The notes under the pieces: model-generated
What the model was told of the DNA's origin: nothing
The model's database searches: none
What the model saw: only the letters and a program-made list of their open reading frames with translations
Origin: a virus
Taxonomy: Duplodnaviria; Caudoviricetes
Length of the DNA stretch: 53,510 nucleotides
Strand: one strand, 5' to 3'
Virus record (IMG/VR): IMGVR_UViG_3300031578_000047
Span: 1 to 53,510 of that record
Shown here: in pieces, positions 9,580 through 13,966 of the stretch
How the letters are laid out: every line of letters starts with the position of its first letter
Numbering within the stretch: position 1 is the first letter of the stretch
Program-made: the position numbers and the translations under genes

Positions 9580-10629
9580 ATGAACGAAAATTCAGATTTC
9601 ATACCTGATGACGGCGAAACCACAGAGGCCAAGCCGAAACCAATAGTGCGCTTCAACATCAATGACCAGCGCATCGCTGAGCTAAAAGAGGAGTGCAAGG
9701 ACGTCGATGCCTACAAGGACTTCGACGCCGCCAAGGAAGCCAAGTCAAAGCTCACCAAGATGCGCTCCGCTCTGACTGAGTCACACAAGACGGTCAAGGC
9801 TGATGCACTGGCGTACTGCCAGCTCGTCGACGGCGAGAAGCGCCGCCTGCTGGAGCTGATCGCAGAGATCGAGGACCCAATCACCAAGCAGCTCAAGGAG
9901 ATCAAAGAAAAAGCTGACCGTGAGGAGGCCGAGCGTGTCGCCGCTATCATGGGGCACATCGAGCAGATCCAAGCCTTCTCTCTGGATCGCCACAGCCTCA
10001 CCCTGGCTGAGCTCAACCAGCGGCTCGAGACCCTGCTGACTCTCGAGATCACCGAGGAGATCTACCAAGAGCACCTCGAGGACGCGGAGAACGCCAAGGT
10101 TGTAGCCGAATCCAAGCTGCGCATCGAGATCACCGCCGCCGAGGAGCGCGAGGCCGCCGCCAAGAGGGCCGCCGAGCAGGAGGAGGAGAACCGCGAGCTG
10201 CGCGAAAAAATGGCCGCCATGGAGGAGGAGCAGCGCAAGAAGGACGAGTTGGTTGCTAAGCAACAAGCCGAGCGCGATCGTGAGGCCGCCGAGCAGCTCC
10301 GCAAGGAGAACGAGAAGAAGCAGGCCGAGCTCGACAAACAGGCCAAGGAGCAGGCCGAAAAGCAGGCAGCCATTGACGCCGAGAACAAGCGCCTAGCTGA
10401 CGAGAAGGCCGAGGCCGACCGCAAGGCCGCCGAGGAGGAGGAAGCGGCTCTCAGGGCCATACAGGCGCCTGACAAGGACAAGATTGTCCTATTCGCTGAT
10501 GCCGTGGCACATCTCATCAAGGTCAAACCAACCCTGCAGTCGGATCTCGGCAACGAGATCATGCTAAACGCTGTAGCCAATCTAGTTGAGATCGAGCACG
10601 ACCTGCGTGCCCGGTCGGAGGAACTGTAA
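9580..10629 (+). CDS. Long coiled-coil protein (DUF1351-like position upstream of ERF), 349 aa
   Basis: GAGGA RBS; E/K/A/Q-rich heptads. Confidence 0.8.
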   Translation: MNENSDFIPDDGETTEAKPKPIVRFNINDQRIAELKEECKDVDAYKDFDAAKEAKSKLTKMRSALTESHKTVKADALAYCQLVDGEKRRLLELIAEIEDPITKQLKEIKEKADREEAERVAAIMGHIEQIQAFSLDRHSLTLAELNQRLETLLTLEITEEIYQEHLEDAENAKVVAESKLRIEITAAEEREAAAKRAAEQEEENRELREKMAAMEEEQRKKDELVAKQQAERDREAAEQLRKENEKKQAELDKQAKEQAEKQAAIDAENKRLADEKAEADRKAAEEEEAALRAIQAPDKDKIVLFADAVAHLIKVKPTLQSDLGNEIMLNAVANLVEIEHDLRARSEEL

Positions 10630-11381
10630 TGTCAGAAGAACAAGCAATCTACGCCGCGCGCTCCAATACGCCACTACTTGACGACCTTGTCCACAGAGTC
10701 AAGAACGTCGAGTCCCTTCTCACCAATCAGGCAGCGCCAGCTCCACAGCACGACAAGCTGTTCGCCGCGCTGGCCATAGCTCAGGGCCAGATCCAGTCCG
10801 CTATCGCTGACAAGGAGAACAAGCACTTCAACTTCAAGTACGCGGATCTCGATGCCTGTTGGGATGCCTGCCGCAAGCCGCTGTCTGAGAACGAGCTCGC
10901 GGTCGTGCAGCTCCCATCGGTCGGCCCGGACGGTGCCGTCACAGTCAAGACTATCCTCGGCCACAGCTCCGGGCAGTCGATCTCCTGCACGTACACGATG
11001 CACCCGGAGAAGTCCGGGCCCCAAGCCCTCGGCTCCTGCATCACATACCTGCGGCGCTACACGCTCTGCCCGCTGGTCGGCATTAGCCAGGAGGATGACG
11101 ATGCCAACATGGCCACCAAGGATCCAAGCGAGTACACGCGAATCACCAAGATCCAGATGAACGAGATCCTGTTGCTGGCCAACAAGCTGTTCGGTGATCG
11201 CGAGGACGAGGTTCTTGACCGGATGCTGCAAAAGCTGTTCGAGGGCTGCGCCATCAGCGACCTGCCGGCCGACAACTACGATCAAGTGGTCGGGCTGCTT
11301 AACAATCAGGCCAAGCGTGAGGCGGCACAGGCGCAGAAGAAAGCAGAGAAGGAGGCGGACGAGCCAGCCGCCAAGAAGTAA
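10629..11381 (+). CDS. erf: ERF-family single-strand annealing protein
   Basis: NKHFNFKYADL...LGHSSGQ...PQALGSCITYLRRYTL...EDDDAN. Confidence 0.92.
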   Translation: MSEEQAIYAARSNTPLLDDLVHRVKNVESLLTNQAAPAPQHDKLFAALAIAQGQIQSAIADKENKHFNFKYADLDACWDACRKPLSENELAVVQLPSVGPDGAVTVKTILGHSSGQSISCTYTMHPEKSGPQALGSCITYLRRYTLCPLVGISQEDDDANMATKDPSEYTRITKIQMNEILLLANKLFGDREDEVLDRMLQKLFEGCAISDLPADNYDQVVGLLNNQAKREAAQAQKKAEKEADEPAAKK

Positions 11382-12044
11382 ATGGACTGCCGCATTATCC
11401 GAGTCGAGCAGGGATCTGACGAGTGGCTGGCACTACGCCGCTCGCGGATCACCGCCTCGAGACTGGGCGATGTCATGGCCAAGCCAGACACCAAGCGATA
11501 CCAGAAGTATCGCCGGGAGAAGGTGCTGGAGCTCCTCGGCAACGAGAACGTCGAGGAGACTCCAGAGTGGGCCAGACACGGCCGGGAGAACGAGGACAAG
11601 GCCATCGCCGGCTACGAGTACAAGTACGAGGTCGACGTCGAGCACAATGTCTTTATGATCTCAAAGAAGTACGACTGGCTGGCGGCAAGCCCAGACATGC
11701 TGCAGATTGCACCCGAGGCTGAGGAGGAGTTCGATCAGGGCGCGGAGATCAAGTGCCGCGCGCTGTACAAGAACTACAAGGCGGCCCGGGCGCTGGCGGT
11801 CGACAAGAAGGGCTCGATAGCGGCTTGTCCAGCCTGCGATCGGCACCAAGTCCAAGGCAACATATGGGTATCAGGGTGGCGCTTCTGGTGGTACGTGAAC
11901 TACTACATCGGTGACGATCTCGAGGGTGGCTTGGTGAACAAGATCCATCGCGTCGGGATCCCGCGCGATCAGAAGTTGATCGACCAGATGGAGGTCAGAT
12001 GCCTGCAGTTTATGAAAGAATGCTACGAGCTTGCTGGCATGTAG
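11382..12044 (+). CDS. YqaJ/lambda-exonuclease family 5'-3' exonuclease
   Basis: EQGSDEWLALRRSRITAS, GRENE, ASPD, EIKC, HQVQ. Confidence 0.9.
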   Translation: MDCRIIRVEQGSDEWLALRRSRITASRLGDVMAKPDTKRYQKYRREKVLELLGNENVEETPEWARHGRENEDKAIAGYEYKYEVDVEHNVFMISKKYDWLAASPDMLQIAPEAEEEFDQGAEIKCRALYKNYKAARALAVDKKGSIAACPACDRHQVQGNIWVSGWRFWWYVNYYIGDDLEGGLVNKIHRVGIPRDQKLIDQMEVRCLQFMKECYELAGM

Positions 12045-12063
12045 CCTAACCAAGGAGAAAATA

Positions 12064-12375
12064 GTGAGTGATCCACAAGTACCAAATGAGTTCGTCGATG
12101 GCCCAGATCAGGAGCCGTTACCGGAAACTATCGAGGCGGCAGTAAAGAACGCCATTGCTGCCAAGACGCCACAGCGCATAGAGCTGAGGCCATGTCCGTG
12201 CGGAGAGTTATCCGTCACGCTGATGATGGATGCCGCGCCAAACTCAAAGATCGGCCGCGCAACCTGCGGAACCTGCGGCACATGGGGAGTCGATTTTCTT
12301 GTGCCGCGTAGCCAGGACCAGAACCTCGTTGGCATGAAGGCAGCAGAGGCATGGAACGAGGCGCCGCGTGGGTAA
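12064..12375 (+). CDS. Lar/Ral-like restriction-alleviation Zn-finger protein
   Basis: ELRPCPCG...CGTCG...AAEAWN; AAGGAG RBS with GTG start. Confidence 0.6.
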   Translation: MSDPQVPNEFVDGPDQEPLPETIEAAVKNAIAAKTPQRIELRPCPCGELSVTLMMDAAPNSKIGRATCGTCGTWGVDFLVPRSQDQNLVGMKAAEAWNEAPRG

Positions 12376-12475
12376 GTGGCTGCCTTGGGTTCTGCTGGTC
12401 TTGCTGATGGCGGGATTTGGGCTGGCCCTGTTAATACTCTGGTGGTTTAGCAATGGCGGTCTAGTTATGATGTGA
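12368..12475 (+). CDS. Hydrophobic 35-aa membrane peptide (not in ORF track)
   Basis: MGKWLPWVLLVLLMAGFGLALLILWWFSNGGLVMM; GAGG RBS; last ORF before the terminator. Confidence 0.5.
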   Translation: MGKWLPWVLLVLLMAGFGLALLILWWFSNGGLVMM

Positions 12476-12529
12476 CTTCTTTCCTCGCGGAAGGAATGCG
12501 GAGCCCGACCGTACTCAACTCAGGGATTT

Positions 12530-12555
12530 AGGCGCCAGCAATGGCGCCTTTTTTT
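12530..12555 (+). terminator. Intrinsic terminator of the recombination operon
   Basis: AGGCGCCA-GCAA-TGGCGCCT followed by a T-run, at the convergence with the late operon. Confidence 0.88.
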
Positions 12556-12745
12556 ATTGCTGGACCTTGCCCTCGAGGCGGGCTAATGAGCGAGAGATCC
12601 CCGGGACCTGAGAGCACACAAACTCAACGTGCTCAACCTTGCCCTCGAGGCGGGTGATTCGCCGCTCTCCGCGCAGGGCGGCCCCTACTATGATGATAAC
12701 AAGCACGATCGTCTGGCCAATGATCCACATAGCAAACTCATTCAT
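12554..12745 (-). CDS. Small N-terminal TM protein (63 aa), lysis-module accessory
   Basis: WIIGQTIVLVIIIVGAAL TM; RLEGKV duplicated (19-bp direct repeat 12564-12582/12636-12654). Confidence 0.65.
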   Translation of the reverse strand: MNEFAMWIIGQTIVLVIIIVGAALRGERRITRLEGKVEHVEFVCSQVPGISRSLARLEGKVQQ

Positions 12746-13032
12746 GGCGCGGTCAGGTCTCGAAGCAGGTCCTCGAGGTCCCTGACCTCCTCCTTCAGGA
12801 GCTCTACCCGGGTCTTGGTCTCGACCAGCTCGCCATTGATCTCAGCGAGGCGGGCCTTGTAGGTCTTGCCAGAGTCAGTGACCAGAGTCTTGTTCAACAC
12901 AATGAGTATCTGATCCTCAGTGATGGCCGCGGTGCCCTTCTCGAACACGCCCATGAAGAACGCTCCAACGCCAAACACGATCGCCGTGATAACGGCGACA
13001 GCAACCTTCTCAAATATCGGCTTAGTTTCCAT
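12742..13032 (-). CDS. N-terminal TM plus coiled-coil protein (96 aa)
   Basis: [22 protein letters not shown] followed by a heptad C-terminus. Confidence 0.7.
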
Positions 13033-13966
13033 CCTTGGACCCCTTCTCGTTCAGTCGCTTGTTGATGGCTGCGCGACGAGCTGCCTCAGCCTCCTGTTTT
13101 TTTCTCAGCTCCTCGGCCTCTGCCTTCAGTCGCGCCAGCTCAGCGTCATTGGCTTCACGCTCTGCCTTGATGGAGTCGAGCTGGTTCTGCTGCTGCGCGA
13201 AACGGCGCTCTTGCTGCTCAAGATAATCCTCGAGCTCCTCCTTCTGCACAGCCTGGGCAGTCAGCTCGTTGTACTCCTCCTCCCAAACCACGACCGCGCC
13301 GGCAGGGATAACTGGCTCCGCTGGTGGTGGCGCCGCTGCTGGCACAGGTGCGATGTGTGCCATGTCTACCTTCATCGTGCGGTTGCCACCAAACTCGAAG
13401 CCGAACGATCCCTGAATGGCCGTGTCGCCTCCAGCCCTACCAACACCAACAGTCAGCGCCGTGTTGCTGTCGTTGTCCAGCATGTAGGCAAAGCCCATGC
13501 CGAAGCCTGTCCTATTGCCGACGCGACTGGCGCCAAAGGTAAGGCGAGATGTCTGGTCTTGCGGCAAGTGAACCTGTATGGCCTGCGTTGCTGCAAGATA
13601 ATTTCTGCTCTCGTCGTACAGCTTGTTGACGTTGGTGATCCACTCTGTCGGAACCTCGCCGGCAGGACCTCGCTCTCCTTGTGGCCCGCGCTCACCCTGC
13701 TCACCCTGCGGACCTTGCGGACCTTGCGGGCCCGGAGGGCCTTGCTCACCCGGAGGGCCTTGCTCACCCGGAGGGCCCTGCTCACCAGGAGGGCCTTGCG
13801 GGCCCGGAGGGCCTTCGCCGCCGCAACCGTGCTCAATGAACCGAGGGTGCTCACAGTCGCCGTGCTCCTCACCGCCAGTCGCATTCGCTCTCTGCATGAA
13901 CATCACAAAGCAGGCAAGCACAAGCAGGCCAGCCAGCGTTAAATTGATTTTGTGGTGGGTTTTCAT
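13022..13966 (-). CDS. Signal peptide + collagen repeat + YadA-type anchor + C-terminal coiled-coil protein (314 aa)
   Basis: Sec signal ending ANA; 18 Gly-X-Y triplets; [13 protein letters not shown] helix plus four amphipathic strands ending GSFGFEF; 122 further residues. Confidence 0.75.
13652..13813 (-). repeat. Collagen-like Gly-X-Y repeat (18 triplets)
   Basis: [12 protein letters not shown] tandem repeats. Confidence 0.95.

Follow-up and report, generated by a model that had tools for sequence, protein, structure and literature searches.

The locus and the architecture of the 314-aa protein

We examined a viral contig of 53,510 nucleotides, IMG/VR record IMGVR_UViG_3300031578_000047 (Duplodnaviria; Caudoviricetes), referred to below as the window; the 53.5-kb source record carries a completeness rating of 97%. 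A run of closely packed genes on its minus strand encodes, in order, proteins of 151, 133, 90, 109, 140, 314, 96 and 63 amino acids (aa) (Table 1). We focused on the 314-aa protein and on p96, the 96-aa protein encoded directly after it. The 314-aa protein resembles a miniature trimeric-autotransporter anchor that bears a collagen-like stalk and runs on into a long helical tail. We lean, by a modest degree, towards the explanation that these two genes form a phage module that builds a bridge across the envelope, in an accessory role and probably not as the main disruptor of the outer membrane.

The genes of the module are tightly joined to their neighbours. The stop of the 140-aa lipoprotein gene and the start of the 314-aa gene have an ATGA in common, and the p96 gene starts 11 nucleotides (nt) within the 3' end of the 314-aa gene, so both junctions described in the initial annotation were found. 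A common ATGA also joins the stop of p96 to the start of the 63-aa gene (p63), and the lipoprotein gene overlaps the 109-aa gene (p109).

The 314-aa protein begins with a signal peptide, as had been proposed from its ANA site, and the A-x-A cleavage site was conserved throughout an alignment of 42 sequences (the window protein and 41 homologues; nine shorter, apparently partial records were excluded). The lipobox of a spanin outer subunit is absent: cleavage would fall between A-N-A and T, and the sole cysteine of the signal peptide is not conserved. The two cysteines of the head, C38 and C48, are invariant (42/42), and the motif C-x-HPxF-x4-C was also present in all four of the canonical short relatives examined. 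The stalk passes the Pfam Collagen profile (PF01391; 37 bits against a cut-off of 27.2), which all 42 family members match. The run of Gly-X-Y triplets was present as first annotated, with 19 triplets (residues 49-105) and not 18.

An AlphaFold2 model of the anchor-to-end part, made with a 21-sequence alignment, had a mean predicted local distance difference test (pLDDT) score of 87.6. It placed a helix at residues 107-129, strands at 140-149, 152-164, 169-178 and 181-190, an unstructured linker, and a single helix of 84 residues at 229-312. This agrees with the helix and four strands ending in GSFGFEF at residue 192 that had been noticed earlier, and the sequence also bears out the Pro/Ala linker and long charged helix, which carry the chain 122 residues beyond the barrel end at F192. 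By arithmetic (0.15 nm per residue) the long helix would measure ~12.6 nm; with the linker and the ectodomain of p96 added, its length could plausibly bridge a periplasm.

Table 1. Features of the locus and related loci (positions refer to the window unless another record is named)
Feature	Position	Strand	Basis or remark
CHAP/NlpC-type peptidase, 151 aa	15372-15827	-	PHROG 1259 (annotated baseplate hub and tail lysozyme), E 2e-25
Secreted fn3/Ig-like protein, 133 aa	14971-15372	-	Pfam Ig_RIMBP2, E 4.3e-6
Membrane protein, 90 aa	14656-14928	-	
p109, 109 aa, one N-terminal membrane helix	14330-14659	-	
Lipoprotein, 140 aa, lipobox LISGC and C-terminal hydrophobic segment	13963-14385	-	
Mini-autotransporter, 314 aa	13022-13966	-	Open reading frame
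Signal peptide, residues 1-29 (MKTHHK..., hydrophobic core, QRANA then TG)	13880-13966	-	Read by eye
Head, residues 30-48, C38 and C48 around HPRF motif	13823-13879	-	
Collagen-like stalk, residues 49-105, 19 Gly-X-Y triplets	13652-13822	-	Pfam PF01391
Pore helix ahead of anchor strands, residues 106-133	13568-13651	-	AlphaFold2 helix 107-129
Four-strand YadA-like membrane anchor, residues 134-192, ends GSFGFEF	13391-13567	-	
Pro/Ala-rich linker, predicted periplasmic, residues 193-228	13283-13390	-	Block pLDDT 64-76
Charged helical tail, predicted periplasmic, residues 229-314; predicted docking tip 295-308	13025-13282	-	pLDDT 81-97
p96, 96 aa: N-terminal transmembrane helix (~residues 8-30) and helical domain, predicted periplasmic	12742-13032	-	
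p63, 63 aa: N-terminal transmembrane helix	12554-12745	-	
GC-rich hairpin	12531-12548	.	Closes converging operons, 3' of p63; terminator-like on + strand by scan rules
Short-tail loci	L011 5962-6701; L013 788-1547; L022 150-853; L024 133-629; L025 968-1731		
Second-family members	P0115, P0116, P0122, P0138, P0151, P0169; L034 257-1048; L040 4650-5627; L035 325-1065		

The predicted membrane anchor resembles those of trimeric autotransporters

When the anchor model was compared with the PDB using Foldseek, the best five matches were AtaA (9vnj_A), Hia (3emo, 2gr7 and 2gr8) and YadA (2lme), at E-values of 8.3e-5 to 5.1e-3 and root-mean-square deviations of 2.5-2.9 over 79-91 columns; the sixth match had an E-value of 0.22. 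For AtaA the E-value was 8.3e-5 and the template modelling score by target 0.67. The pore helix of the model aligned with its counterparts in the AtaA, Hia and YadA anchors.

The window protein itself scored 12.7 bits (E 0.14) against the Pfam profile YadA_anchor (PF03895), below the cut-off of 22.7, but this match spans positions 4-60 of the 60 in the profile and ends exactly at F192. The profile was found at E<=1 in 30 of the 42 family members (best 1.4e-6). Two relatives, P0125 (26.9 bits) and P0139 (28.3 bits), exceed the cut-off; their matches to the window protein have E-values of 9.9e-11 and 2.7e-8, respectively. The Pfam check suggested in the initial annotation was therefore passed by relatives and not by the protein itself. 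A profile of the anchor-to-end alignment searched against PDB sequences gave weak coiled-coil matches only and no anchor, and the corresponding full-length profile was swamped by collagens.

Membership of the family is thus indicated by homology through relatives and by the fold, a helix followed by a four-strand meander, and not by the protein's own gathering score or by a classical anchor position at the C-terminus. Taken together, these data support the reading that the protein is a collagen-bearing miniature trimeric-autotransporter anchor, whose C-terminal tail must then lie in the periplasm. The outer-membrane anchor, collagen stalk and periplasmic tail originally envisaged are in this way supported by the YadA_anchor relatives, the AlphaFold2 model and the Foldseek matches. 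From the anchor fold and the collagen repeat we infer a homotrimer with a 12-strand barrel.

The protein has several features in common with YadA, Hia and AtaA (type Vc, PF03895): a signal peptide, a helix and four strands ending in an aromatic residue, and a passenger that needs trimerisation. It differs in that the passenger consists of a 19-residue head and a collagen stalk only, in being phage-borne, in its sub-threshold Pfam score and in the long chain that follows the last strand. The earlier statement that such anchors end the polypeptide was too strong, since ~12% of trimeric autotransporters are reported to carry a periplasmic extension, mostly outside Proteobacteria (10.64898/2026.01.22.700529; PMC7549365). 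The examples, in Veillonella (Vta), Fusobacteriia, Synergistia and Synechococcus (coiled-coil or SLH/OmpA), likewise have a C-terminal domain after the anchor, often a long periplasmic coiled coil (PMC7549365; 10.64898/2026.01.22.700529). These differ from the window protein in being chromosomal adhesins, nearly all outside Proteobacteria, for which the cited passages describe no inner-membrane partner.

Homologues and integrity of the reading frame

A word-indexed search with residues 105-314 returned 50 proteins (E 1.6e-58 to 8.5e-15), all of them metagenomic and 39 with a precomputed collagen domain, and an exhaustive search with residues 106-314 returned 146 representatives at E<=1e-3. Given these close homologues and representatives, the open reading frame is not a chance one. 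The signal site, both cysteines, collagen, anchor motifs and tail are common to the members of the 42-sequence alignment. As read from the match table, about 30 of the 146 representatives have their last residue aligned exactly with query residue 192. The four of these short relatives that we examined have the signal, the Cys motif, collagen and an anchor ending in EF, so that the long tail looks to have been added to a mini-autotransporter of canonical form.

We also considered that the open reading frame might be an artefact or a virion fibre, with a collagen-like tail-fibre gene joined by mis-assembly to the sequence downstream. It is true that the PHROG matches at E<1e-3 were all to tail-fibre, tail or virion families, by way of the collagen repeat, and that blastn against isolated phages gave collagen-repeat matches only. 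However, independent contigs of four runs agree across the junction between FEF and the tail, the whole architecture is common to 41 full-length homologues from other assemblies, and a signal peptide with a membrane-anchor fold is unfit for a virion protein. We regard this explanation as very improbable.

The contigs of runs X4 and X6 cover positions 12400-13709 unbroken with one substitution (13174 A>C) and, apart from 9 nt inserted in frame in the collagen repeat, are free of indels. This insertion (at 13689) amounts to one extra Gly-X-Y triplet and was present in contigs of three runs. A contig of run X7, from a different study, covers 13367-13706 with zero differences; runs X1, X4 and X6 are possibly from the window's own sampling campaign. 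No stop or frameshift was seen in any contig or homologue, which removes the concern, raised at the outset, that an assembly error might hide a stop directly after FEF. The substitution at 13174 was seen in two of the three insertion-bearing runs and changes Ser265 to Ala by our own reading. Breaks in the assemblies fall between 13700 and 13780, as a repeat would lead one to expect.

A tblastn search of the protein against 50,697 isolated-phage records gave no match, and a scan of bacterial one-genome-per-species collections with a single peptide pattern gave one locus, in a Desulfuromonadales metagenome-assembled genome. With this one pattern, the result suggests that the family is rare in bacterial genomes. 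Its near-absence from genome collections would fit phages that are seldom in sequenced genomes and a lytic rather than a lysogen role. In PADLOC-DB the 314-aa protein matched coiled-coil noise only (PbeC E 0.019, JetC E 0.082), and p96, p63, the lipoprotein, p109 and a protein of the second family described below had no match there.

The partner p96 and the predicted contact with the tail

We examined 26 viral loci, one genome locus and seven metagenome loci. L026 was dropped as a collagen-only match, and L004, L008, L010 and L014 duplicate other loci. Eighteen distinct loci carry the long tail (the window, L001-3, L005-7, L009, L012, L015-21, L033 and L037). In all 18, the next gene encodes a protein of 84-112 aa that has a hydrophobic segment at its N-terminus and is helical in the remainder, and the start of this gene lies in a range from 52 nt ahead of the stop to 3 nt past it (longest-ORF starts, ORF being open reading frame). 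By BLAST, 9 of the 26 viral loci have a recognisable homologue of p96; the remaining long-tail partners have the same build but another sequence type, and the tail type shifts along with the partner type.

In p96 the hydrophobic segment at about residues 8-30 and the helical rest were evident from the sequence and from an 11-sequence alignment, a build that corresponds to the inner-membrane subunit of spanins. The distribution of charge would make the N-terminus the membrane anchor and place the remaining domain in the periplasm. A search of the ESM Atlas with p96 and the lipoprotein returned unnamed viral clusters only.

The complex was modelled as three tails (residues 195-314) with three p96 chains (residues 31-96), using our own alignments of 19 and 11 rows. 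The interaction prediction score from aligned errors (ipSAE) was 0.63 (runs 0.63, 0.60, 0.64), as against 0.00 for all three controls, which were unrelated proteins and none of them coiled coils. Among the calibration pairs, 58 of 80 solved complexes and 2 of 110 mismatched pairs attained this mark, counts that hold only roughly here since the 3:3 design with small own alignments differs from the calibration. The runs had at least 93% of their contacts in common, with a partner pLDDT of at least 82. The modelled interface is small and specific, and it brings residues 295-308 of the tail against residues 82-96 of p96, which are both C-terminal tips. Across the 18 pairs the partner tip was net acidic in 15 and the tail tip net basic in 12, a weak trend.

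The tip-to-tip contact is thus a prediction of the model, and docking of the tail on p96, which the initial annotation had put forward, is supported by the model together with the synteny. Its second proposed partner, p63, was not supported: p63 homologues adjoin the gene in only 3 of the 26 loci. In addition, a weak relative of p63 (26% identity, pairwise E 8e-6) is encoded by an 89-aa gene of the G003 lysis cassette; in G003, a related complete record, this cassette lies ~18 kb from the autotransporter pair.

Five relatives have a short tail, with 29-37 residues and a Cys pair after the anchor, and are followed by a membrane peptide of 43-51 aa with two helices. A relative with a 54-residue tail (L023) was without such a neighbour. 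In all five short-tail loci a gene of ~120-130 aa follows, with a Cys/His pattern that is HNH-like by eye.

These data also bear on another explanation, in which the protein acts alone at the surface as an adhesin or shield and its tail only stabilises it in the periplasm, with the downstream membrane protein genetically linked but non-binding. Periplasmic coiled-coil domains on Veillonella trimeric autotransporters are reported to be needed for stability, and tails that have no known inner-membrane partner and protect from degradation exist (10.64898/2026.01.22.700529). Structure models also frequently lay helices together, and the two-helix peptide of the short-tail relatives could not reach the tail tip. 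Set against this, the partner gene abuts the stop in 18 of 18 long-tail loci, the same partner occurs after an unrelated N-terminal domain that has only the tail in common, and the model gave a specific tip-to-tip interface (0.63 versus 0.00) and no side-by-side bundle. We consider a stand-alone adhesin to be distinctly unlikely.

The tail and its partner also follow an unrelated N-terminal domain

Some of the 146 matches aligned with the tail only, and these revealed a second secreted family. Its members have a signal peptide, a low-complexity stretch and a domain of ~100 residues with four cysteines, and then the same linker and helix. The four cysteines of the N-domain are invariant, with the motif SNNTNVVLVPNNNT..C. 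Four members were scanned against Pfam, and the N-domain had no match at E<=0.1. The AlphaFold2 model of this family was poor (mean pLDDT 69.6, N-domain blocks 32-77) and showed a hairpin and short helices but no barrel. A search of viral contigs for the second family gave only the tails of already known loci.

In L034 a second-family gene is followed by a p96 homologue with a 4-nt overlap. In L040 the second-family gene occupies the slot that the 314-aa gene has in the window, after homologues of p109 and the 140-aa lipoprotein, and a gene for a membrane-helical protein comes next. Since this combination of tail and partner recurs behind an N-terminal domain of unrelated type, it constitutes a portable docking module, a result obtained by computation.

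A variant arrangement was seen in L035 (26-1068) and L036 (90-833), where a 100-aa gene with the build of an inner-membrane spanin subunit (i-spanin) overlaps a second-family variant by 4 nt. The variant has a short helical tail with two cysteines, and the 100-aa protein likewise ends with two cysteines. By its sequence the pair looks like a spanin-style pair with an outer partner that lacks a lipobox.

Relation to lysis cassettes and spanins

The pair stands at the end of a lysis cassette in the window, L002, L005-7, L015, L018 and L019, and in seven of these eight loci BLAST placed a homologue of the 140-aa lipoprotein, which is like a unimolecular spanin (u-spanin), just upstream (the exception is L007). 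In six loci the pair adjoins a gene read by eye as the small terminase subunit. In other settings it lies beside a lysozyme-like (L016), a tail-fibre-like (L020) or an RtcB-like (L021) gene, these names also being given by eye.

Homologues of the 140-aa lipoprotein were present in 7 of the 26 loci and in L040. The lipoprotein appears to have the build of a unimolecular spanin; its match to an Rz-like spanin PHROG reached only E 0.032. Two cysteines lie in its predicted periplasmic part, a feature in which it departs from the 58 u-spanins of the survey in PMC6139136, from which the definition of a u-spanin used here is taken. The overlap of its gene with the p109 gene, which encodes a membrane helix, resembles the arrangement of a two-component spanin. 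The periplasmic part of the lipoprotein looks helix-prone by eye.

Three related records, G002, G003 and G004, are rated 100% complete. In G002 and G003 a cassette lies 18-21 kb from the autotransporter pair. It comprises an M15-like endolysin, a holin, one gene each of p63-like and fn3-like type, and an i-spanin overlapped by a lipoprotein as the outer-membrane subunit (o-spanin). In G004, a complete genome, the lysis cassette was not located. Since G002 and G003 have such an ordinary cassette at a distance, the pair is most likely accessory and probably not the spanin of the phage, and where this could be checked (G002, G003 and the window) the genes present indicate that it is not the sole spanin candidate. 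Similarly, because weak relatives of p63 and of the 133-aa fn3-like protein occur in the G003 cassette, both are assigned to lysis cassettes, and p63 is probably a lysis-cassette gene outside the autotransporter module.

An fn3/Ig-like protein is an unusual member of a lysis cassette. Such a protein recurs in or beside lysis cassettes in L047 (15068-15496), L016 (7061-7438), L012 (7857-8462) and L033 (7797-8381), and that of the window shares 31% identity with the product of a 143-aa gene that G003 carries between its holin and i-spanin genes.

An alternative role for the pair is that of a second spanin of a new build, with a barrel-anchored outer subunit, in which clusters of tail and p96 would fuse or tear the membranes after endolysin action and so supplement the lipoprotein spanin. 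Spanin outer and inner subunits are reported to meet by their C-termini and to thread the cell wall (PMC6139136), and the modelled contact is likewise from C-terminus to C-terminus. In the eight loci named above the pair forms part of the lysis cassette, to which overlapping codons couple it. Three of 11 p96-family members weakly match Rz-like spanin PHROGs (E 0.0027-0.0072). In L016 the pair comes three genes after the lysozyme-like gene, and no clear lipoprotein was found in the 12.5-kb locus (one candidate passed the first filter and failed the second). The L035/L036 gene of i-spanin build overlaps a variant with a cysteine-bearing tail, as spanin subunits do, and 91 of 677 phages surveyed were without a recognisable spanin (PMC6139136).

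However, each of the better-resolved genomes (the window, G002 and G003) has another spanin candidate, and the six loci with a terminase-like gene (by eye) place the pair away from lysis genes. The conserved surface stalk and Cys-loop head would be useless for membrane fusion, and the lipobox that defines an o-spanin is absent. As compared with the spanins of lambda (Rz/Rz1) and T1 (gp11), the pair has overlapping genes, a lysis-cassette location in this phage and a predicted geometry of C-tip to C-tip in common. It differs in that the outer subunit would be a barrel with a surface passenger, its gene comes first, other spanin candidates coexist and no family-level match rose above noise. On balance we think a second spanin unlikely, and an accessory envelope bridge remains our preferred reading.

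Comparison with other envelope systems

To our knowledge, trimeric autotransporters have been seen as adhesins of bacteria for which the general insertion machinery is the only partner required. Small envelope proteins encoded beside a trimeric autotransporter occur in the SadA-SadB system of Salmonella and the AtaA-TpgA system of Acinetobacter. SadB is described as an inner-membrane-anchored trimer and is said to assist trimerisation and display (PMC3953254; 10.64898/2026.01.22.700529), and a crystal structure of the AtaA anchor includes a TpgA domain (title of 9vnj). p96 differs from SadB, to which we liken it by description only, in being anchored by a transmembrane helix and not by lipid. 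Both SadA and AtaA lack the periplasmic tail that forms the predicted p96 contact here.

A further parallel is Bucl8 of Burkholderia, which is reportedly a trimer with its collagen part outside and with periplasmic helices that meet inner-membrane-anchored partners. Like the 314-aa protein, this TolC-like outer-membrane efflux component bears an extracellular collagen-like region (PMC7682875). It belongs to another barrel family with efflux-pump domains, forms an open channel as part of an efflux pump and is chromosomal, and this likeness, too, is by description only.

Periplasmic coiled-coil tails on bacterial anchors were thus already known, and what is new is the phage setting and the inner-membrane partner. 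Literature searches over titles and the starts of abstracts gave no phage-borne, collagen-bearing or barrel-type spanin-like autotransporter, and we are aware of no earlier description of such a pairing of autotransporter and inner-membrane protein for phages. The words phage, prophage and collagen are absent from the main text of 10.64898/2026.01.22.700529, although its supplementary tables might list similar proteins.

Proposed role of the pair

In the explanation that we prefer, the 314-aa protein would be exported by Sec and inserted in the outer membrane as a miniature trimeric autotransporter, in which three chains would contribute four strands each to one barrel and the helix would fill the pore. 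A collagen triple helix of ~16 nm would then stand on the cell surface, capped by a disulfide-closed HPRF loop. In contrast to classical anchors of Proteobacteria, the chain would continue past the last strand, with the Pro/Ala linker and the 84-residue helix traversing the periplasm. p96 would sit in the inner membrane by its N-terminal helix with its helical domain pointing upward, and the basic tail tip and the acidic p96 tip may join end to end, three on three.

The pair behaves as a mobile cassette, which in this phage may have been inserted at the end of the lysis cassette and would be made late. p96 might dock, pre-trimerise or stabilise the autotransporter, by analogy with the help that SadB gives to SadA. 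The tethered rod could alter the surface of the infected cell, where it might repel further phage, keep the phage's own progeny from the cell and debris, or serve in adhesion. The collagen stalk with its conserved tip points to such a job at the cell surface, and an accessory role is the most likely one.

Several observations weigh against this reading. The window protein's own Pfam score is below the cut-off, and the anchor-to-end profile retrieved no anchor from the PDB sequences. The partner of the L001/L003 type has a weak hydrophobic segment (best 17-residue window 1.62). The chain runs for 85-139 residues after the barrel while the periplasmic part of the partner stays at ~61-68, so there is no fixed total span, and no length compensation between tail and partner was seen across the loci. 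The design of the complex model and its choice of controls, the weak spanin matches of the p96 family and the L016 locus also count here. The idea of a SadB-like helper leaves the same tail and partner on a barrel-less protein unexplained.

In a broader idea, the tail and the inner-membrane partner would be a portable connector across the periplasm that phages fit to differing outer heads, a barrel with collagen in one family and a Cys-rich domain in the other. It might be a third kind of spanin in which a barrel replaces the lipid, or a means of coupling surface events, such as the collagen tip touching another phage or cell, to lysis proteins of the inner membrane and thereby to the timing of lysis. 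We rate this broader idea as rather doubtful, and continue to prefer the accessory bridge.

The phage family carries a minimal predicted trimeric autotransporter whose working parts amount to ~200 residues and in which a collagen stalk and a periplasmic tail are combined with a dedicated inner-membrane partner. Should the contact prove real, the pair would be a small and tractable model for the periplasmic pre-assembly of a trimeric barrel and for the building of a protein bridge through the cell wall, and it would add an envelope-spanning complex to the late genes of phages beside the spanins. One could then also test directly what collagen rods do at the surface of infected cells, be it exclusion, the shielding of progeny from debris, or adhesion. 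The tail-partner pair could also be a compact handle for tethering proteins between two membranes.

Gene neighbourhood

The record looks like that of a podovirus, as judged from a large terminase, a portal, a PHROG 376 tail protein and giant proteins of 2339 and 1491 aa. No integrase was found among the 20 large window ORFs scanned.

A sigma-70-like site (14021-13994, minus strand; TGGACA, 16 nt, GATAAT; 10/12) was seen inside the lipoprotein gene, ~28 nt ahead of the start of the 314-aa gene. It could supply the pair with a promoter of its own; four such sites were found as against 1.1 in shuffles, and this one is a lead only.

The converging early operon on the plus strand (12031-12375 and 10629-12044) ends with an Erf-like annealing protein and a RecE/YqaJ-like exonuclease. 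At the same end of this operon there was also a weak match to a Lar-like restriction-alleviation family, which lies below the Pfam cut-off (E 3.1e-4).

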